From contig OZ244621.1 in the NCBI GenBank assembly GCA_965218425.1, forward strand, positions 1,152,001 to 1,216,000: a stretch of 64,000 bases of DNA, read 5' to 3'. Shown piece by piece: positions 29,065 through 54,990 of this stretch. The DNA is from an uncultured Candidatus Binatia bacterium. Lineage in GTDB: Bacteria; Desulfobacterota; Binatia; UBA9968; CAXXLF01. A program made the translations under genes and the position numbers. The notes under the pieces were generated by a model, which was not told where the DNA came from, ran no database searches, and saw only the letters and a list, made by a program, of their open reading frames with translations. Each line of letters opens with the position of its first letter. The first letter of the stretch is position 1.

Positions 29065-30126
29065 TTATCGTCGCCCGCTTTTCCTGACCGCCGGCGCCGG
29101 CGTGCCGTCGACGCAGTTCAGTTGCGCCTCTCCGCCCTCAAGCAGCGCCTCGAGCACATCCCGTTCAGCGGGATCGACGCTCAACCCGTATTCCAACTTT
29201 ACCTGGATCACTCGTTGCGCAAACCATGCGCCGTGTCGGGCCGGCATCCATTCGGCTGCGTCCCGGTCACTTTTCTGCGACCGGTTCACCGCCCGATCCG
29301 CGATCGTGAGGTTATCGAGGTCGCGGGCGATAGCCCGGCGCCGACCGTCAGCGATTCCGCTATCGTGCGCCTCCGCCAGCGCAACGATGTGCTCTATGTC
29401 CGTCGCAGCGGTCCCGTTCGCCGTGATGTCGAACGCGATGCACGAGTACGGTGTGTGGACCTGCCCGTTCGCCTTCATCGTCGGCGGCAGCGCTGCGATG
29501 ATCTCGTCCTCCAGGGTCCTGTAGCCCGTCCCGAAGGCGTCGCGGTCGTAGCCGTCCCGCGGCCGCTCTTCGCAGACCTTCACCCCACGCCAAGTCTCCG
29601 CGTCAGCCGGGCAGCCCTGCGTATCCAGCGGCGGCTGCGGCTGGACATTGGGGATATAGCCATTGGGGTTCGAAGCAGAGTCACAGGCGATACCATCGGT
29701 GTCCGTGTCGCTCGATCGGCTCCGCTCCAGCCATGCGTAGATGATGCCGGTGCCGTCACGGTCGTCCTGGTACGCAGGCAACCTCAGGCCCTCATCACGG
29801 CCTTCCGCTTCAGCGCATATCAGGTCGCCGTTCCCGTTAGCATCCCAGTATGAGAAGTCGTTGTGCGATTGCGCTGCCACTGGCGGTGCGGGGAGCAGCA
29901 TCAGAACGCCGAGCAGGACGGCTGAGATTCCGTGGCTCCCGTGAGCTTGCAACTTGGGCGCCCTACCTAACAAGGCTTGAAGCTGGTTCCAATTTCGTGG
30001 GCAGCCTGGTCCTCTTGACATGGTGCGCAAGTCGGCCCTGCTGAGGAACACTTTTCGGCGGGCAGATCCTCGGTTCATCAAATGATAGACTGCACCCCGA
30101 TATTCAATGCGTAAGGGCCGTGACAT
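29065..30126 (-). CDS. In-frame chimera: Y1 transposase N-terminus (32 aa) plus secreted DUF1524/HNH-like nuclease
   Basis: MSRPLRIEYRGAVYHLMNRG..RRKVF; then a signal-like segment, DANGNGD, DIEHIVALAEAHDSG, NL..NRSQKSD..EW; cargo may start at Met 30021. Confidence 0.7.
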   Translation of the reverse strand: MSRPLRIEYRGAVYHLMNRGSARRKVFLSRADLRTMSRGPGCPRNWNQLQALLGRAPKLQAHGSHGISAVLLGVLMLLPAPPVAAQSHNDFSYWDANGNGDLICAEAEGRDEGLRLPAYQDDRDGTGIIYAWLERSRSSDTDTDGIACDSASNPNGYIPNVQPQPPLDTQGCPADAETWRGVKVCEERPRDGYDRDAFGTGYRTLEDEIIAALPPTMKANGQVHTPYSCIAFDITANGTAATDIEHIVALAEAHDSGIADGRRRAIARDLDNLTIADRAVNRSQKSDRDAAEWMPARHGAWFAQRVIQVKLEYGLSVDPAERDVLEALLEGGEAQLNCVDGTPAPAVRKSGRR

Positions 30127-30311
30127 CGAAAGCCTTAATTACAGTTCACATTCCAATTATCGACAAAATACTTGGCCCCTTCGCCTTGCCGGCGCCCCGG
30201 TTGCGTCCGGTCGTTTGCAGGAAGACACGCGGGCCATCGACCGGGGAGAGGGCCGCATTAGCCCAAATTAAATTAGCTCATAGCCCATAATTTTTCCGTT
30301 TCACAAGCCGC
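30031..30311. repeat. About 280 bp repeat (Y1 transposase 5' end, TIR, flank) shared with 35585-35868
   Basis: Colinear match including TTATCGACAAAA(T/G)ACTTG(G/A)CCCC at 30157-30179. Confidence 0.85.
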
Positions 30312-30500
30312 GTGAGACTCGCGTATGTTTGAAGTCCCGGACCTAGGGTCGGCGCGCGGTGTCATTCGACACGTCGTCGAAGCCCGGTGTGGCGGTTTCA
30401 TGGGGCGTTTCCTGAAACTAACGGAATGGGGGAACGAATGAGATTGCGGGGGTGCTCGCAGTTCGAACTGAGACAATACCAATATGAAGGAGGCAGTACG

Positions 30501-32384
30501 ATGTTTATCCCCCAAATTGGGTTCTTAGCCAAATCAAAAAATGCAAGTGCTTCCAGTGTCTTGTGGGCGCTTGTTTGTGTTTTCATGCTGTCCGGTTGCG
30601 CAGGGGGGGGAGGGGGAGTCACCCTCATGCCACCGCCTACGACACCGCCTAAGCCGGTGGACCCAACGCCGGGCTTGCCGCTCCCTTCGGGGCATGGGTT
30701 GATGGCAGGCCAGATCACGGTGGCGGCGGGGGCATCGGAAGAGCACGGCAATGTTGTGGTGACGTGTCCCGCGGGCGGCGGTGCGTGCGCGGTGACGGTG
30801 GCGGCGGACGGCACGGCGGTTTACGACAGGACGGGCGGCACGCCCACTTTCATATTTGCACATTGGACATACGAGCGGGACAACCCTACAGCGGAGGACT
30901 TGCTGGATCACTGGAACAAACCGGAGCAGTTGCGCACAGCATTGGGGCTGTCAGTGGTTGATGCCGCGGACATCGCCGACCGAAAGAACGCTCTAACGGA
31001 GTTGCTCAATTCGGCCGGAGGCGATGCAGCCGAGACCGGGACCCGGCTCCGCAACGTTCGGCCGGAGGATGTCGAGATCATCGGCGAGCGGAACGGAATC
31101 ACCTACGGGCGGTGGACGGGCGGTCCGGCCGGAACCTTCAACATCGATTTTGACTACAGATTCGCTCCCGAGGCCACTCAGGAACAGCGGGCGCGGATAG
31201 AACGGGCTGGCAAGTCCTGGTCTTGGCGTCTGGATGACGAATCGCGGAGATTTACGGTCGAAGCTGGTCAGCAGGTAGCGCGCAGCAGGACGATCGACGG
31301 GGTTCCGGTCGAAGAACTGCGAGTGGACGAAGACGTAACAACAGATGGCTTGGTGATCTTCGTTGACTTCCACGGTGGCACCCGGCGAAGCAGGGGCGGA
31401 CCCAGCATCTCGAGCCGAAGCGCTCGGGAGCAAGGCGACTTCCACCCCTACGCCGGTAGCATAAGAATCGGGACACCCCGCTTCGATGAAGTTTCCGAGA
31501 GAGGCAACCTCCGGCTGACCGGCCTTCTCGCCCATGAGATCGGGCACGTGATGGGAATCGGGTCAACCCTGAGACGAGACCCCTTCGTTGCCCACGTAGA
31601 CGAGGCGGCATATACCTTTACCGGGCCCAACGCCGTGGCAGAGCATGGCGGGCCTGTCCCGTTCCAATGGCTGGACAACAACCGTAATTCAGTTCCGCCA
31701 CGCACCCCAGGAGCGAGCGTGGATTGGGTACATATAGGCCCATGCGGTTCCGTCATGTCCTACTGCCGTCACGAATACGACATATATGCTCCCACCGAGC
31801 TGGACTTCGCATTCCTCAAGGATATCGGCTACGAAGTCCTTGATCCAAGTGTCGCGGAAGAGCCGGAGATTTACGGGTATGGGGCTTGGGGCCGCTACAG
31901 CGCATGGGGCGCGGGCGTGGAGCGTACCATCACCCATGACGCAGACATCCGTGGCAGCTTCAAGGATCTCGATACCCGAGACGCCCTCCATGCCACAGCA
32001 GACGCCTTCGGCTCAGCTCCCACCACGCCACTAACCGACAGCATCCAAGGCACCGCCACCTGGTCCGGCTCCCTCTTAGGCGTGGACATCGGCCAACCCA
32101 TGCTGCCGCCGGTGTTCGGCAACGCGGAGCTCAACGTGGACCTGGCCACTCTTAGGGGTTCCGCCCAGTTCCGTGACCTCACAGTGCACGTGGACAGCGT
32201 TTCCACCGCGTTCCGCGCTCCTGAGCTGCAATACAGCATCAACGTTAACGGCAACACTTTCTCCGACGCCGCGGGCCATGTCCAGGGCGGATTCTTTGGC
32301 CCCAATCATGAAGAGATGGCGGGTGTGTTGGATGACAGGGCTGCGGCTGTTAGCTTGCTGGCGGGATTTGGCGGGAGGCGGTAA
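30501..32384 (+). CDS. Lipoprotein: zincin metalloprotease plus C-terminal TbpB-like beta-barrel
   Basis: Lipobox LSGC, Gly/Pro linker, HEIGHVMG, HIGPCGSVMSY, GFFGPNHEEMAGV. Confidence 0.8.
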   Translation: MFIPQIGFLAKSKNASASSVLWALVCVFMLSGCAGGGGGVTLMPPPTTPPKPVDPTPGLPLPSGHGLMAGQITVAAGASEEHGNVVVTCPAGGGACAVTVAADGTAVYDRTGGTPTFIFAHWTYERDNPTAEDLLDHWNKPEQLRTALGLSVVDAADIADRKNALTELLNSAGGDAAETGTRLRNVRPEDVEIIGERNGITYGRWTGGPAGTFNIDFDYRFAPEATQEQRARIERAGKSWSWRLDDESRRFTVEAGQQVARSRTIDGVPVEELRVDEDVTTDGLVIFVDFHGGTRRSRGGPSISSRSAREQGDFHPYAGSIRIGTPRFDEVSERGNLRLTGLLAHEIGHVMGIGSTLRRDPFVAHVDEAAYTFTGPNAVAEHGGPVPFQWLDNNRNSVPPRTPGASVDWVHIGPCGSVMSYCRHEYDIYAPTELDFAFLKDIGYEVLDPSVAEEPEIYGYGAWGRYSAWGAGVERTITHDADIRGSFKDLDTRDALHATADAFGSAPTTPLTDSIQGTATWSGSLLGVDIGQPMLPPVFGNAELNVDLATLRGSAQFRDLTVHVDSVSTAFRAPELQYSINVNGNTFSDAAGHVQGGFFGPNHEEMAGVLDDRAAAVSLLAGFGGRR

Positions 32385-32488: not shown

Positions 32489-32619
32489 GGCGTCATGCCT
32501 GCCTTCTTGCTGTTCTGGGTTCCCTTCCCTTTCGGATTCCAGCTTGTATTGTGCCAGCTCTCTTTTGCAATCTCCTGTCCGTTTGGACGCGGTCCACCAA
32601 AGCATGGATGCGGTTCTTT
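32489..32619 (-). repeat. Module A copy 4 (right part)
   Basis: GGCGTCATGCC end; TTCCCTTCCCTTTCGGATTCC core; encodes KNRIHALVDR on the minus strand. Confidence 0.8.
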
Positions 32620-32769: not shown

Positions 32770-33055
32770 ATGCATGCTGGGAGTCGATACGGGCCGAAAC
32801 GAGCGCGGTGGCGTGGTCGTTGGCGGGTTCAGATTCAGGATTACTTGATTGCCGTTGTGCAGAACATCGAGCTGATGATTGTTCATGCACGGCCAAAACC
32901 CAGAGCCGTATTGGCGGCAGCAACGAGGTCGGTCATTCGCTTTGCGGCCCCCCATCCAATGGTCTTGCAGCAAGCCGTCATAGCTTGAGCAAACAAACAC
33001 GTTATAGCTCGATTGGATCTATTGCGCTATTGAACCGACGTTTGGGCAACAGACC
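32770..33055 (+). mobile_element. IS1182-like transposase 3' remnant and right end
   Basis: RYGPKRARWRGRWRVQIQDYLIAVVQNI; terminus TTTGGGCAACAGACC. Confidence 0.6.
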
Positions 33056-33127
33056 GAAAAGATTTGACCCCTTCGCCGGAGGCCGCCATGCGGTCGGTCC
33101 ACATCCTCTGCCCAGGTACCGGGACCA

Positions 33128-33232
33128 TAACGGGCGCGTATCGATCACCCCAGCGGGTAGGAGCATTATCTCCCTGGGAGGCTCCGTCCCGCCGGGGATC
33201 TTGACGGCTGTGGCTACGCAGTAGAAAGGCAT
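33128..33232 (-). pseudogene. Possible Mu-like phage protease (gpI) N-terminal fragment
   Basis: PPREIMLLPAGVIDTRP resembles the 'IQLLPAG' start of Mu-like protease. Confidence 0.4.
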
Positions 33233-33281
33233 CCCCCCTTATACAATATGTGGTGGAGTGTACAAGGCCCAGGCACAATAT

Positions 33282-34118
33282 CTATATGTCGTTGTCGGGT
33301 TCTTTGGGTGGGTTATCGGAGAGATGGGTGTCCGTTGTGGACGGCCGCTCGGGCGATGGCTCCTCTTGAGAGACCTTTTTCTTTGGCGTCCGTTTTTTTT
33401 TCGGGAGCGAAATCCTGACCTGCTCAAGTTCAGATAGCGCGGCATCGTTCAGCAAACGTCGTATCCCGGCGAGGATGTCTTCCGGGGGCAACGCGATCCG
33501 ATAGTCTCGTCGGATCTTGTGCCGAATGGCACTGATGACGGGCTCGCAAAGTATCGCCCGGAGCAGGCTGCGGGGGTCGAGAACTTTTGTTTTGCGCCAC
33601 AACTCGTCCAACGCTCCTCGTCGGATATTTCGATGGGACAGGAGTTCCAGTCCATCGGCAATCACGGACATCTCGGACGTTACAAAGTCCCACGAGTAGA
33701 TGAGTTGGGTCTGCGGAGGCTGCTCGAATAAGATGTGATAGAGCCGCCACTCTTTAGAGTTCGTGAGGAGCATCCATTCGCAACCCGCGTTGATAGCATA
33801 GGACACGGCTTGACGAATGTGTTTCGATCCGAGCTCGACGTTAACCCTCTTGATCTCCACCACGATTGCCGGCTTCGCGTTGTCGGTGCCATCTACGCAT
33901 ATAGTGAAATCCATGTGCTCTGTTTCACCTGCGCCGCGCACCGCTTTTTCACGAGAGAGGTGCTTGAAGGGGTCGTACCCCATAAGGAGTTCGAAAACCC
34001 GCTCTACACGTCTCCTGGTTTCCGCCTCGTTGCAATCAAGTCGTTCCGCCTCTTGGATCATGTGCTGGGTGTCGACGATGTTACGCCGGAGAACCTTGTC
34101 CACAGACTTTCGTTCCAT
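33282..34118 (-). CDS. HsdR_N-like stand-alone PD-(D/E)XK nuclease
   Basis: NEAETR, MGYD, DF...VEIKR, RQAVSYA, W.LLTN..EW.LY. Confidence 0.8.
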   Translation of the reverse strand: MERKSVDKVLRRNIVDTQHMIQEAERLDCNEAETRRRVERVFELLMGYDPFKHLSREKAVRGAGETEHMDFTICVDGTDNAKPAIVVEIKRVNVELGSKHIRQAVSYAINAGCEWMLLTNSKEWRLYHILFEQPPQTQLIYSWDFVTSEMSVIADGLELLSHRNIRRGALDELWRKTKVLDPRSLLRAILCEPVISAIRHKIRRDYRIALPPEDILAGIRRLLNDAALSELEQVRISLPKKKRTPKKKVSQEEPSPERPSTTDTHLSDNPPKEPDNDI

Positions 34119-34419
34119 TTGGAATGCCTCCTTAAGCAGCATAAATTGACCGAATTTCAGGGCCGCTCATAAAACCATCCTCTGCATTGAATCGCTACTT
34201 ATTTATTTTCTGAGATTGTACTCGCCAAGGAAGCGTCAGTAAAGAGGTCAAATCTTTTGTTGACAAATAACATCTTCCAGATTCTCCAGCCGCCTCCAAA
34301 ATCTTCTATCTGCCTCACGCTTTAAGTGAATCCCATGGCACGCCCAGCCCACTGCACCGCAACTCTTCACTCCATACTCCCTGGCTGCTTCCACCAACGT
34401 CATGTCGCTTGGCCTCTTC

Positions 34420-35530
34420 ATCTTTGACCTTGAAGAACGCCCGGGCTCTTCTTTGCGCGAAGCTGCCTCTGCCCGCACGGATCGGGATCTGGAACGCCTG
34501 AGAGAGATTGTCGATGATGTCCTGGCGTCTCTTTATCTGCCGCCCTTCGGCGGTGTTGGGGGGGTGGTAGTTATTTTTTAGCGGGGTGGAAGATTGGGGT
34601 ATGTCGTCCTGCCTCATTTTGAAATCGGGCAGGCCGTAGGCGTGCGGGTCCTCTGCTATAGCGGGATTGGGGGTATATCCTTCGGGACTATCAACCCTTC
34701 CCGGTCCGCCTTGGTTTTGATCTTGATACACTCCTCCGCCCACTTCCTGTATCTTTCCGGTTGGGCTCCCTTCCTTGATTCCAAGGAACGATGGAACTCC
34801 TTCCATTCCTTCAAGGAAGAATACAGTGTTGGCGGGTCTATTGTTGAGATTAATTCCTCCTGGTTCGGTGTCATAGTATATACTCCCAAGCGTGTGAAAA
34901 TACCTGAAGGAATCTTCTACGATATCCGCATGCCGGCTGTCAAGGGTCGTGGCGTAATCGACATAACCGAACCGGTGAGACACTCGCCACACTATGTCCT
35001 AGTGAATCCGTTGCGCGTCATCGGCCGTCAATTTTTTTTCGTTCACTCTCACTTGGATCGCCAGTCTCACGGCCTCGCTTACGTTATCCAGCATTCTCCT
35101 CAATCGCCTTACGCCTTTTTGTTGAGACTGCCAATCCTTAAGCTCCTTTGTCATCTTGGCCGCATATACGCTGCCATTGGAGCCAACGGCCACTATGGAA
35201 TCCATGCCTATGTAAGTTAAGGCCAGTACGTCATCCGGGCTCAAGGGCCTCATTCTCGGATGATTGTGGTACAGGGTGATCTTGCGGTTGGCCTCGCTCA
35301 TCGTTTTCTTTAGATCGGGGGTAAAGGATATCTCCGACTTCTGATGAACACTCCCGGCGTGGGAATTGCCGCTGATACTATCGACCAACACCATATGCTC
35401 GAAGCCGTCCTGCTCCCCTTTCCCTAAGACGTGTTCTATCGCTCGCTTCGGCGCTTCTGAGGTAATGCCTAAGGCACATCCCAACTTTCCTCCCCTCGTT
35501 CTCCTCTCCTCTGCAGCTCCTCACCGGATC
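34420..35530 (-). pseudogene. Fragment of phage polyvalent/MuF-like protein (JAB-like domain) with in-frame stop
   Basis: EHMVLVD...LYHNHP...SPDD; ORFs 35484-34999 and 34992-34315 are in the same frame separated by one TAG. Confidence 0.5.
34656..34874 (-). CDS. Small hypothetical protein nested in an alternative frame
   Basis: MTPNQEELISTIDPPTLYSSLKEWKEFHRSL...; GGGAG RBS upstream. Confidence 0.4.
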   Translation of the reverse strand: MTPNQEELISTIDPPTLYSSLKEWKEFHRSLESRKGAQPERYRKWAEECIKIKTKADREGLIVPKDIPPIPL

Positions 35531-36110
35531 TTCCACCCCCCATAGATCGTGTGCCTGTGAAACCGTCTTCAGAAATTCCCCATAGTCGGCCCTGCTGAGG
35601 AACACCTTTCGGCGGGCGGATCCCCGGGTTCATCAAATGATGGACTGCACCCCGATATTCAATGCGTAAGGGCCGAGACATTGAAAGCCTTAATTACAGC
35701 TCACATCCCAATTATCGACAAAAGACTTGACCCCATCGCCTCGCCGGCGCCCCGGTTGTGTCCGGTCGTTTGCAGGAAGACGCGCGGGCAATCGAACGCT
35801 GCAAGGGTCGTGCATTTGGCCAAATTATAATATCCCATAGGCCAAAATATTTCAGTTTGACAACCCGCCTGCGACTCATCGATCCTATAATGTGATCAAA
35901 CCCTTGTGTAACGGTGATGATGAACTCCAATCAACAGAGCCTCCTGTGTCGGGTCTTGTGCCGAATACAATAACCCAACCAAGGTTCGGATTAGCTATCC
36001 GAGCTGGGTGAATAGGCAGAACTTCACACATTATCTCTGCGATAGTTGCAAATAGCCCGGCAATTTCGCCCGGTCATAATATTTCTCTAACTAGGAGGTT
36101 TCGATTCGAA

Positions 36111-37610
36111 ATGAAAACGATATGTGGGATTTTTACAGGCATGATAGTGTTCGTGGCGCTGGGTTGTGGAGGCACAAGCTCTAGTTCCAATTCCAATTTG
36201 CTCAATCAGAGTCCCGCGCTTAGGTACCCTGGTCGGGATTATCGTAACACCGCGGGAGTGGATATTCGTGATACCTGGAAAGAGACGAGCCCTATAAAGT
36301 CCCATTTCGGCCTGGAGCCTGGGGGTACGCCAATCGGCGGTCTTATTGATCATGCCGATCTTCCACAATTCAAAACGTCCGCGTGGACAATCCTGGGGTC
36401 AAAGAACGGTATCACTTACGGACAACAAATGTCGGGTCCCACAGACACCATCGACATTGATTTCACCGGATACTTTGCGGAATTGCCCGACTACGTGCAG
36501 GGCGCGCTGGAGCGGGCGGGGAAGTCCTGGTCTTATAGGCTGACCGACAAACTGGGTTCGCATCTATCAACGGATTCGCCTGTGACTGGGGTTACTAGAG
36601 TGGACGGACGAATTCCACCACGCAGCGTCGATGGTATTCTGATTGATATCGATTCCGATTATAACAACCCCGCGTGGGATTATGTTTGGGGGTATTCTCG
36701 TGGGACTTATCGGACCACTCAGACGGTAGGGGGGGACTTTACGGTCAGGACTGGTTGGGTCGATTTGGCGGCAACTACTATCGAGCAGGGTGATAGTTGG
36801 CTGGCACATATCGCTTCTCATGAAGTTGGTCACGCCATCGGACATAGTGCGACACATAATACGTTGCCAGAGACCATTGCCCGTTATGTGGACTTTGACC
36901 GGGGAGTATGGACCGGACCGGCATTGACGGCGGCTAATCGAGGCAGGAACGTGCCTTTCCAGGACCTTGACGGCGAAACGGATTTTGGTCACTTGGGTGC
37001 TTGCGCCATGATTATGTCCTATTGCGGTAATCCGATTGAAATCCCGCATGAGTTGGATTTCGCTTTCATGAAGGACATTGGCTACACCGTGGAGGACTCC
37101 TATCCTACAGTGCCCGAACAATACAGTTACGGCGCATGGGCGGAACATTCGGCTTGGGGTGTGTTGGCGGCTAGAAGTTTGACTTTCGCTTCCTATGGTA
37201 TAACCGATCATATTACGGTGCAGGCAGATGCCTTCGGGAACCCATCTAACACGGATTTTGCTGGTTCACATATCGGGACGCTACAGTGGAACGGTTCCTT
37301 ATTGGCGACGGATTTGGAGAAATTCGCGCCGGTTTTTGGCGATACACGTATTGTGTTGTCAGGTGACACCTTGGACGGCACTGTCTCATTTACGAATCTC
37401 CGTACGGTAAAAGATGCGGAAGGCGAGGTAGCGCTCATGCCGTGGCGCAGAGCTAGTTTAGGGTACGGCGTCAAGGTGGAAGGGAATAGTTTCAGGGATG
37501 TCGGTGAAAAAGTCAGCGGGGATTTCTACGGCCCGCAACACGAGGAAGTGGCCGGTGTCTTGAACGATGGGCCTGCAAAAATTCTGGGGGCTTTTGGCGG
37601 CACCAGATGA
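36111..37610 (+). CDS. Lipoprotein: zincin plus TbpB-like barrel (paralog of 30501-32384)
   Basis: Lipobox ALGC, HEVGHAIG, HLGACAMIMSYC, DFYGPQHEEVAGV; AGGAGG RBS. Confidence 0.82.
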   Translation: MKTICGIFTGMIVFVALGCGGTSSSSNSNLLNQSPALRYPGRDYRNTAGVDIRDTWKETSPIKSHFGLEPGGTPIGGLIDHADLPQFKTSAWTILGSKNGITYGQQMSGPTDTIDIDFTGYFAELPDYVQGALERAGKSWSYRLTDKLGSHLSTDSPVTGVTRVDGRIPPRSVDGILIDIDSDYNNPAWDYVWGYSRGTYRTTQTVGGDFTVRTGWVDLAATTIEQGDSWLAHIASHEVGHAIGHSATHNTLPETIARYVDFDRGVWTGPALTAANRGRNVPFQDLDGETDFGHLGACAMIMSYCGNPIEIPHELDFAFMKDIGYTVEDSYPTVPEQYSYGAWAEHSAWGVLAARSLTFASYGITDHITVQADAFGNPSNTDFAGSHIGTLQWNGSLLATDLEKFAPVFGDTRIVLSGDTLDGTVSFTNLRTVKDAEGEVALMPWRRASLGYGVKVEGNSFRDVGEKVSGDFYGPQHEEVAGVLNDGPAKILGAFGGTR

Positions 37611-37932: not shown

Positions 37933-37992
37933 TTGTGGGGGTCAGACCTTGACACTTGACATGATTCATCTCGCCTTCTCAAAAGTTATTGA
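37933..37992. repeat. Module B copy 1 (Y1 element right end)
   Basis: TTGTGGGGGTCAGACCTTGACACTTGACATGATTCATCTCGCCTTCTCAAAAGTTATTGA. Confidence 0.85.
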
Positions 37993-41081: not shown

Positions 41082-41588
41082 ATGAATAGGGAAGCGAGCA
41101 ACGAAAAGAGAGGAAGCGCAACGGCTCAGCCGTACGGTAGGCAGGCCGCGTTGCTTACGCTCGGGATCGCTCCAGTGATTTTTTCCAGTGAGCGAGTGCG
41201 GATTGGGCGCCTCGATCCGGAAGAACACGGGCTCATCAGGGATCTTCGTCTCGAACATCGGGGAACACATGCATTTCGCTTCGATGCCAGGGACATGAGG
41301 ATCGCGAATATCGGTCTCCGGCCGGATGTCGCGCCAATGGGGGAGATTGAAGAGGTTGCGGTCGGGAAGCACTTGTTGCTGCTGGCGGTGGCTATCGAAC
41401 ACCAGCTCTGGCACTGGCTGTCAGGCAGTCGGAAAATACTGCATCGCTTCCACCCGTTGATCTGTCTTGGCAACCGGGACCGGCTGTTGACGAAGGCGTT
41501 ACAGGAAGTCGGCATACAGTCGCCGGATACGCGACTTGATGTTGTCGCCAAATGGTCATTCGGTTTGCGTTGTGGGGTCAGACCTTGA
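41082..41588 (+). pseudogene. Truncated prokaryotic Argonaute N-domain (long-B / RsAgo-like)
   Basis: Colinear resemblance, recalled by eye, to the RsAgo N-terminus; cut at module B (41570). Confidence 0.55.
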
Positions 41589-41766
41589 CATTTGACATGA
41601 TTCATCTCGCCTTCTCAAAAGTTATTGAGAGAGCGCTAAAGCTCTCCCGCCACCGTCGCCTCCCAGGTTGCACTGTCCCGACACCACGGGGCGGCGGCTG
41701 CTGCAATATGCGTCAAGACGCCGTCGCATGACGTGGAGCGGCTCGGCCATGTCGTCTTTTGAAACC
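41570..41766. repeat. Module B copy 2
   Basis: Near-identical to 54681-54878; minus strand ends ATG TCA AAT GTC AAG GTC TGA CCCC (MSNVKV*). Confidence 0.88.
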
Positions 41767-54680: not shown

Positions 54681-54990
54681 TTGTGGGGGTCAGACCTTGA
54701 CATTTGACATGATTCATCTCGCCTTCTCAAAAGTTATTGAGGGAGCACTAAAGCTCTCCCGCCACTGTCGCCCCCCAGGTTGCACTGTCCCGACACCACG
54801 AGGTGGCGGCTGCTGCAATATGCGTCAAGACCCCGTCGCATGACGTGGAGCGGCTCGGCCATGTCGTCTTTTGAAACCGGAGTCATGCCCGCCTTTTTGC
54901 TATTCTAGGTTTCCTTCCCTTTCGGATTCCCGCTTGTATCGTGCCGATTCTCTCTTGCAATGTCCTGTCCATTTGGACGCGGTGTTCTAA
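54681..54990. repeat. Module B copy 3 plus module A copy 8; direct repeat of 41570-41871
   Basis: About 300 bp colinear match. Confidence 0.88.

Follow-up and report, generated by a model that had tools for sequence, protein, structure and literature searches.

How did a stretch of foreign coding DNA come to lie between the two ends of a transposase gene, and what kind of element carries it? Here we examined this question at positions 34241-35738 of a 64,000-nucleotide stretch of contig OZ244621.1 from an uncultured Candidatus Binatia bacterium (the window; positions are those of the window unless a genome position is stated). The original prediction described an element akin to REP-associated tyrosine transposases (RAYT), in which the catalytic core of a Y1 transposase had been swapped for phage-like DNA. 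We find that the locus is very probably a TIRtron derivative, decayed and non-autonomous, with a module of a polyvalent protein as an insert. TIRtrons are one-gene elements of ~1.0 kb that encode a RAYT-like Y1 (HUH) transposase with a DnaA_C-like helix-turn-helix (HTH) tail, and they end in terminal inverted repeats (TIRs), 20-25-bp arms of the GGGGTCA type. The coordinates of all features are collected in Table 1.

An intact copy of the transposase gene lies in a genome of the same genus (G001; locus L026, positions 771-1730). Its 319-amino-acid product starts MSRPLRIEYQGAVYHLMNRG and ends VVICQQKI, and matches the Pfam models Y1_Tnp (1.9e-13) and, at residues 228-291, Bac_DnaA_C (7.3e-9). 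The protein carries the HUH motif MPNHYHL (residues 57-63) and the segment RYVHLNP, whose tyrosine we take to be the catalytic one. A perfect 20-bp inverted repeat, GGTCAAATCTTTTGTTGACA, frames the gene, with the upstream arm 51 nt before the start and the other arm overlapping the stop codon. The same 20-mer is found in the left arm of the window element, so that the intact homologue with matching TIRs that had been proposed as a check is at hand. Both ends of the gene are retained in the window, as first described, and the remnants are collinear with L026 at 76-81% DNA identity. By this comparison the two halves come from one RAYT-like Y1 transposase family and not from two. The frameshift that had been read in the N-terminal remnant was also confirmed as a +1 shift, with one extra base near 35626 relative to other copies; contigs from other studies omit one letter at 35626. 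Past this insertion the remnant reads on in another frame as ...FLSRADYGEFLKTVSQAHDLWGVE-DPVRSCRGEENEGRKVGMCL. What remains at the C-terminus is the tail together with the rear portion of the DnaA_C-like HTH domain, a domain clipped in the window by a deletion and split by the insert. A Pfam search with the window element's own pieces gave nothing significant.

The TIRs first noted as 19/23 matching positions are real. A repeat search recovered two inverted arms of 21 nt (34246-34266 and 35712-35732) with 86% complementarity, and the stop codon of the transposase gene (34248-34250) falls inside the left arm, as had been stated. RAYT-like genes with flanking TIRs have been named TIRYT, and the units TIRtrons, by Di Nocera, De Gregorio & Rocco (2013, BMC Genomics 14:522, PMC3733652), who give GGGGWSAS as the common TIR motif and describe moderately abundant TIR repeat families, often present as dimers. 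The right arm here is GGGGTCAA, which agrees with this motif at 7 of 8 positions, the eighth being A where the motif has S; the left arm is AGAGGTCAA. In an alignment of 18 left-end copies from the own genome the outer boundary is sharp: homology opens at (T/C)AAAG(G/A)G-TCAAATC, and the flanks are unrelated, one similar pair excepted. Right ends in this genome terminate at ...GACTTGACCCC.

Inside these ends, two separate events can be distinguished. A 573-bp in-frame deletion takes out residues 51-241, including the HUH motif and the RYVHLNP tyrosine, and it is common to three insert-less copies of ~400 bp in the own genome. The foreign DNA, 1,049 bp, lies ~63 bp from the deletion junction, between residues 262 and 263; L026 positions 1555 and 1556 are adjacent across it. 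Its junctions are clean, with no target duplication, no target loss and no microhomology. Since the insert separates two positions that lie side by side in the intact gene, at a distance from the deletion, and since the deletion occurs without the insert in three copies, the core was not swapped for foreign DNA as the original prediction held. Judged from these alignments, the foreign DNA is a separate, clean insertion into an already deleted copy. The loss of the HUH and tyrosine region, with no intact copy in the own genome, makes the window element a non-autonomous derivative and not a functional TIRtron. The insert has no transposon hallmarks of its own by repeat search and end folding, and no subterminal hairpins at its ends. 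A weak inverted similarity of the insert ends (~13/18 columns, gapped) was seen by eye; it is absent from the repeat listing and was taken as chance.

Table 1 Coordinates of the element, its parts and related copies and repeats.
Feature	Position	Strand	Details
Probable decayed TIRtron derivative	window 34241-35738	gene on minus	in a 4.46-Mb single-contig genome
Left TIR (3' end of the gene)	window 34241-34266	minus	core GGTCAAATCTTTTGTTGACA at 34246-34265
C-terminal TIRYT remnant, residues 263-319	window 34248-34422	minus	MKRPSDMTLVEAAREYGVKS...QQKI and stop; open reading frame 34248-34478
Foreign insertion, 1,049 bp	window 34423-35471	minus	same orientation as the transposase gene
Chimeric reading frame through the insert	window 34315-35484	minus	interrupted by TAG in the window copy
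In-frame TAG nonsense codon	window 34999-35001	minus	
Transposase remnant, residues 241-262	window 35472-35536	minus	DPVRSCRGEENEGRKVGMCL; between deletion junction and insert
Junction of the 573-bp internal deletion	window 35531-35537	minus	BLAST against L026
N-terminal TIRYT remnant	window 35538-35681	minus	MSRPLRIEYRGAVHHLMNPG...HDLWGVE; ATG at 35681
Right TIR (upstream of the gene start)	window 35712-35738	minus	terminus ...GACTTGACCCC at 35734
Collinear with L026 714-913	window 35738-35538		TIR, leader and residues 1-48 (BLAST)
Collinear with L026 1491-1555	window 35536-35472		residues 241-262 (BLAST, 80% identity)
Collinear with L026 1556-1732	window 34422-34246		residues 262-319, stop and TIR (BLAST, 81% identity)
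Deleted, insert-less copies, ~400 bp	genome 691349-691754, 1566750-1567181, 1680209-1680583		
Repeat islands	genome 185-236 kb, 658-695 kb, 1177-1207 kb, 1560-1580 kb, 1677-1696 kb, 1929-1945 kb, 2752-2787 kb		
Units of ~130 bp in metagenome contigs	L119, L124, L126, L128, L133, L144, L145, L147, L155, L163, L171, L175-L177, L185, L188, L195		

The insert holds a 349-codon frame that is open except for the TAG. It is laid out as a JAB/MPN-like domain (residues ~5-156), followed by a linker that is helical and rich in Pro and Gly and then by the first ~77 residues of a further conserved polyvalent-protein region. In an exhaustive HMMER search 302 library proteins matched this frame at E<=1e-3, and most of the best 150 of these are longer than 1,000 amino acids. 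Residues ~5-180 match an internal module of such proteins, with four tandem modules in P0004 (3,937 amino acids). Residues ~270-349 match a different region of other giant proteins at 45-50% identity, and these alignments reach the last residue of the query, so the insert probably cuts that region. Pfam searches of six matching proteins found ddrB-ParB, LPD38 (in two), InPase or Phage_Mu_F in five and no domain in the sixth. Iyer et al. (2017, J Bacteriol 199:e00245-17) list these as marker domains of polyvalent proteins, and also report RadC-type JAB domains within such proteins.

A predicted structure of residues 1-156, built from 25 aligned sequences, has a mean predicted local distance difference test (pLDDT) score of 89. 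The top Foldseek match is RadC (2qlc, E 2.5e-3), followed mostly by JAB/MPN chains, and a profile search of Protein Data Bank sequences returned RadC 2qlc only (E 0.045). His 68, His 70, Pro 71, Ser 77 and Asp 80 are conserved in at least 90% of the 25 homologues and Asn 69 in all of them. In the model, the HxH...S..D metal-site motif lies on the fold elements expected of a JAB/MPN (JAMM) fold. Like the RadC/JAB domains of giant phage and conjugative-element proteins, the module thus appears to combine this fold with this motif. Unlike them, it matches no Pfam JAB or RadC model, has an HxH-to-S spacing of 6 residues and stands alone within a dead transposon. The modelled fold and the matches to giant proteins support the identification of the cargo as a JAB/MPN-fold domain and linker of a polyvalent protein, and the earlier description of a broken JAB-like polyvalent-protein fragment holds, the break being the single in-frame TAG.

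Where the cargo came from is less clear. Phage records gave five weak matches from three phages, and the only relatives with an annotation are the DarB-like antirestriction proteins encoded by Sinorhizobium phage PBC5 (30% identity, E 4e-13) and by Agrobacterium phage Atu_ph08. In PHROGs the first 156 residues matched phrog_10691 only (E 0.0074) and the last 191 matched nothing; a phage tblastn with these last 191 residues and a plasmid tblastn with the whole insert gave no match. A scan of IMG/VR with the insert protein returned 13 pattern matches, none of which was confirmed, and a word-indexed protein search for longer relatives returned P0001 only. Thus phage, plasmid, viral and protein searches found no close donor. 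The earlier term "phage-like DNA" finds some support in the DarB-like relatives, but these are distant, and by such similarity a phage-like origin of the insert is plausible.

The own genome holds one other copy of the insert, at genome 1684405-1685208, which covers residues 69-349 at 76.5% identity. Its left junction is identical to the base, with a different left flank, and it is cut at the equivalent of position 35197 by the end of another GGGGTCA-type repeat, with loss of the right half and of the HxH motif. Both insert junctions are also spanned, at ~95% identity, by contigs from two other studies (runs X5 and X6). None of 120 other genomes of the order contains a match to the insert. Compared with the second own-genome copy, the patch 34640-34780 (minus strand) is highly diverged, with a synonymous rate (dS) of 0.54 and a ratio of non-synonymous to synonymous rates (dN/dS) of 0.86. 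In the contigs from other studies, 34843-34915 is replaced by 76 other letters (joint 34842/34916). Both replaced patches are about length-conserving and the surrounding DNA is 92-95% identical, which suggests recombination with unseen relatives or local diversification.

Outside the first patch, the frame through the insert bears a clear signature of past purifying selection in its substitution pattern. Over 209 codons of the window and second copies, dN/dS is 0.19 (Fisher p 2.5e-8), from 27.5 synonymous changes over 141.2 sites and 20.5 non-synonymous changes over 485.8 sites. The other five frames give 1.46, 1.14, 2.76, 1.51 and 0.33, the last being the antisense frame with the same wobble positions as the coding frame. 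A protein-guided alignment gives 0.24 without the patch and 0.38 with it. Among the listed differences to the X5/X6 contigs, 15 of 32 are synonymous, with 79 further differences beyond those listed. The TAG reads TGG (Trp) in the second own-genome copy, and in the X5/X6 contigs a T>C change at 35000 likewise gives TGG. Trp is likewise read at this position in two proteins from other assemblies that fall into one 90% cluster with the first open reading frame of the window; a 235-amino-acid protein of another assembly has TGG here. The chimeric frame may start at a TTG at 35484, within transposase-remnant DNA and preceded by the purine-rich GGGGAGGAAAG. Its stop at 34315 lies in the left remnant, in a frame other than that of the transposase. 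A terminator scan found none.

BLAST of the own genome gave 27 segments; with the window included, 17 left ends extend to the TIR, and there are 8 right ends. Besides the three ~400-bp copies there is a fourth, divergent short pair at genome 3880809, and all four short copies are pseudogenes with frameshifts or stops. Left ends are 86-92% identical pairwise without clear clades, with the 3880809 copy at 67-70%. At <=4 mismatches the TIR word has 31 genome matches, of which the close ones lie without exception at element ends; the word does not occur alone in this genome. In the contigs from other studies, two joints run back from the right end to the left, 35739 to 34239 and 35721 to 34239. 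Right and left ends in the own genome also stand 0.8-1.25 kb apart in this same order. The joints might be head-to-tail copies or circle junctions.

The sequences point to the following course of events. The 573-bp deletion produced the ~400-bp form, which is present in several copies, and one such copy then received the 1,049-bp foreign piece, placed between codons 262 and 263 and oriented as the gene is. The foreign piece may have entered by an illegitimate, end-joining-like event at a break rather than by capture built into the element; a part for the Y1 enzyme in this step is possible, as speculation. The insert-bearing form is present at the second own-genome locus, with the same left junction, and on the contigs of the two other studies. 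Its frame evolved under purifying selection, perhaps expressed for a time as a stand-alone JAB-like protein from start signals of the remnant, and the window copy now has the TAG and, in the remnant, the frameshift. An intact TIRYT whose TIRs match, like the one in the same-genus genome, would have mobilised the deleted forms in trans.

Several observations weigh against this account. No intact TIRYT gene with the studied TIR is present in the own genome, where the four Y1_Tnp matches are other genes, so that mobilisation in trans is a supposition. With the right half of the second insert-bearing copy lost, a move of the composite as one TIR-to-TIR unit is likewise no more than possible. The window right end recurs, with ~65 bp past the TIR, at window 30030-30243. 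Part of the right flank recurs at genome 2764084, each instance being upstream of paralogous lipoprotein genes, and those two copies have an internal truncation point in common. With the right end and its flank duplicated together, at least some copies spread by segmental duplication and not by transposition. An empty site was not recovered, the left flank being absent from the two nearest genomes. In the studied species, shuffled sequences fold as well as the 5-bp palindrome of the arms. Finally, the chimeric frame has a different 3' end in each of the two own-genome copies, which weakens the idea of one conserved protein.

The strongest competing reading, which we consider possible but rather unlikely, is that the composite is a domesticated gene or was one not long ago, with the dead element as an expression platform for a JAB/MPN-like protein kept by the host. 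To its role, for example in phage conflicts, and to the status of the window copy as a recent loss-of-function allele we give the same tentative standing. The low and frame-specific dN/dS is what this reading expects, as are the intact motif residues and the frames of other assemblies and contigs that are open where the window has TAG. The insert also begins within ~4 codons of the domain N-terminus of stand-alone homologues (for example, query residue 9 corresponds to residue 5 of P0043), and the purine-rich GGGGAGGAAAG lies just before the TTG. However, both own-genome frames are broken, by the TAG in the window and by an N-terminal truncation that removes the HxH motif in the second copy, and the C-terminal frame ends are not conserved between them. 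A promoter scan found 3 promoter-like sites against 2.1 expected, none above chance. The low dN/dS could also partly reflect recombination with unseen functional relatives, as at the two replaced patches.

A doubtful extension of the decayed-TIRtron reading, slightly less probable than domestication, is that a miniature TIRtron-derived element acquired a complete JAB/MPN-type module of a polyvalent protein from a phage or conjugative element and carried it to new loci and strains as selected cargo. If this were true, the locus would be the first cargo-bearing member of the TIRtron class and would show one way in which individual "weapon" domains of the polyvalent proteins of invaders turn into host genes. 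What appears, on sequence grounds, to go beyond the searchable literature is a TIRtron deletion derivative that holds a polyvalent-protein module, with past purifying selection, at two loci and in related populations. The genome gives clear evidence of TIRtrons as sharp-ended units that leave gene-bearing deletion derivatives and nest into each other. If the module was functional, it shows that a host can keep one domain out of the multidomain protein of an invader on a dead transposon. The intact copy with perfect TIRs and the natural mini-elements are ready substrates for TIRYT biochemistry.

The original prediction further proposed a new class of TIR-bounded Y1 elements. Such a class is real, but TIRYT and TIRtrons have been in print since 2013, so the claim of novelty falls. 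A full-text search found the term TIRYT only in Di Nocera 2013 and in Quentin et al. (2018, BMC Genomics 19:475, PMC6006769), who equate it with their subclass 2.1, with Bac_DnaA_C/HTH tails; in the accessible text of the two papers, there is no mention of cargo or of gene-bearing copies with internal deletions. The window element and its intact relative resemble TIRtrons as published in the RAYT-like Y1 gene framed by TIRs starting GGGG(W)(S)A, in the downstream arm that overlaps the 3' end of the gene, in the C-terminal Bac_DnaA_C/HTH domain, and in the repeated TIR families and dimers. They differ in that the window copy is without the catalytic core and has a foreign coding insert.

We surveyed the class in the best 80 of 571 relatives from a search of genome contigs, together with L026 (81 loci). 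Arm pairs of the GGGGTCA type were accepted at >=15/24 identical positions (many have 22-24/24), within spans of 850-1,300 bp and flanks of 1.5 kb. Such pairs were found at 59 of the 81 loci, across many phyla, with spans of 902-1,230 bp. L026 fails this filter because its right arm begins ACGGTCA. In a separate scoring of 62 loci, arms with the GGTCA-type motif scored 12-33, against 7-13 for direct-orientation and shuffled controls. In a scan of metagenomes with the TIR word, 79 loci were found; 3 hold full-length ~1.0-kb units with both TIRs, and in 17 the two arms of a TIR pair start 107-122 bp from each other, in units of ~130 bp that fit the published dimers. The ~130-bp units consist of two inverted copies of the studied TIR around a spacer of ~85 nt, and occur as REPIN-like miniature TIRtron forms in many environmental contigs. 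A candidate 846-bp TIR pair in L136 was set aside, with 4 mismatches in one arm and no clear content.

These surveys also bear on the idea that the class habitually captures foreign fragments between its TIRs, like Pack-type elements, and so records phage encounters. The window element does resemble Pack-MULE and cargo transposons, as a non-autonomous TIR element that holds an unrelated gene fragment in more than one copy (two own-genome loci with identical left junctions and the two-study contigs), and the annotated relatives of the cargo are phage proteins. Even so, we regard habitual capture as improbable. The transposase is of another class, and the insert-bearing copies, at the two own-genome loci and on the contigs, carry one and the same cargo, with no evidence of repeated capture. 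Within the fetched flanks, different copies do not carry different cargo: none of the 79 metagenome TIR loci encodes the insert protein (tblastn), and all 59 TIR pairs among the relatives span 902-1,230 bp, in a test that covered spans of 850-1,300 bp. The other junction groups among own-genome left ends, which look mosaic, are nested insertions of other repeat families and so are not alternative cargo. The position of the insert, 63 bp from the deletion junction, is likewise not that of a replaced core.

The original prediction had also set TIRs against the subterminal hairpins of IS200/IS605 elements. TIRs are indeed present, but the contrast was overdrawn, since the arms themselves contain a small palindrome; arms of 36 of the 59 pairs have a perfect palindrome of >=5 bp starting at GTCA. 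The studied element shares the Y1 HUH fold (Pfam Y1_Tnp) with IS200/IS605, and like them has no evident target duplication at its ends. Unlike IS200/IS605, whose ends are one-strand subterminal hairpins without TIRs, it has TIRs; the L026 protein scores 17.2 bits against the IS200 model NF033573 (cut-off 55). Both TIRs and the insert ends, folded as single-stranded DNA, give z-scores of -0.4 to +0.7, and an Rfam search over window 33000-37000 gave nothing at E<=1.

RAYT genes with their repetitive extragenic palindromes (REPs and REPINs) are similar in that they encode a Y1 HUH protein from the same superfamily, have a short palindromic unit on each side of the gene, in inverted orientation, and form non-autonomous doublets. 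In contrast, the studied element is without a GTAG-tagged REP, and its gene is multi-copy and encodes a protein about twice as long, with an HTH tail. Least probable of all is that the arms are REP-like hairpins, the gene a domesticated single-copy RAYT and the copies products of host-segment duplication only: the best NCBIfam match of the L026 protein is the REP-associated tyrosine transposase model NF047646, the palindromes in 36 of 59 pairs and the duplication of the right end with lipoprotein-gene upstream regions fit, but the score of 73.2 bits is below the cut-off of 80, the good TIR-word matches are all at element ends and none stands alone, flanks are unrelated in the 18-copy alignment but for one pair, several whole-gene copies are present in the same-genus genome, and hairpin energy does not exceed that of shuffles.

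The studied element shares its genome with similar repeats. An intact TIRtron of 991 bp at genome 1404076-1405066 (L023) encodes a 323-amino-acid Y1_Tnp frame, MARPLRLQFPGATYHV..., and has the TIR GGGGTCAGACCTTGACA. This word has 22 genome copies at <=2 mismatches, three of them in the window (37938-37955, 41574-41591 and 54686-54703), and one end of this type truncates the second insert-bearing copy. The abundant words GGGGTCAGGTAACATG and GGGGTCAAGCTCCAG belong to repeats of ~150 bp with dozens of copies (for example genome 2933840-2933990), which interrupt several left ends of the studied element. The second of at least two such short repeat families, with a unit of ~115-280 bp and dozens of copies, encodes the C-terminus of a Y1 protein of the L022 type. 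These families nest into each other and into the studied element in repeat islands (Table 1). In this one genome the GGGGTCA-ended repeat families number at least two, probably four. The short frame at window 32493-32600 (minus strand), ...AGTIQAGIRKGREPRTARRQA, matches the C-terminus of the 329-amino-acid Y1 protein of locus L022 and is, on this similarity, probably another transposase-gene remnant.

Two paralogous putative lipoproteins are encoded in the window at 30387-32384 and 36111-37610 (plus strand), with HExxH and a weak C-terminal match to the TbpB C-lobe. Both genes are preceded by a right-end remnant and a common upstream stretch, which looks like segmental duplication of a lipoprotein gene together with transposon debris. 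On the other side, a 286-amino-acid protein (window 33282-34142, minus strand) adjoins the left end of the element and matches HSDR_N_2 (7.4e-10), the N-terminal domain of type I restriction R subunits.

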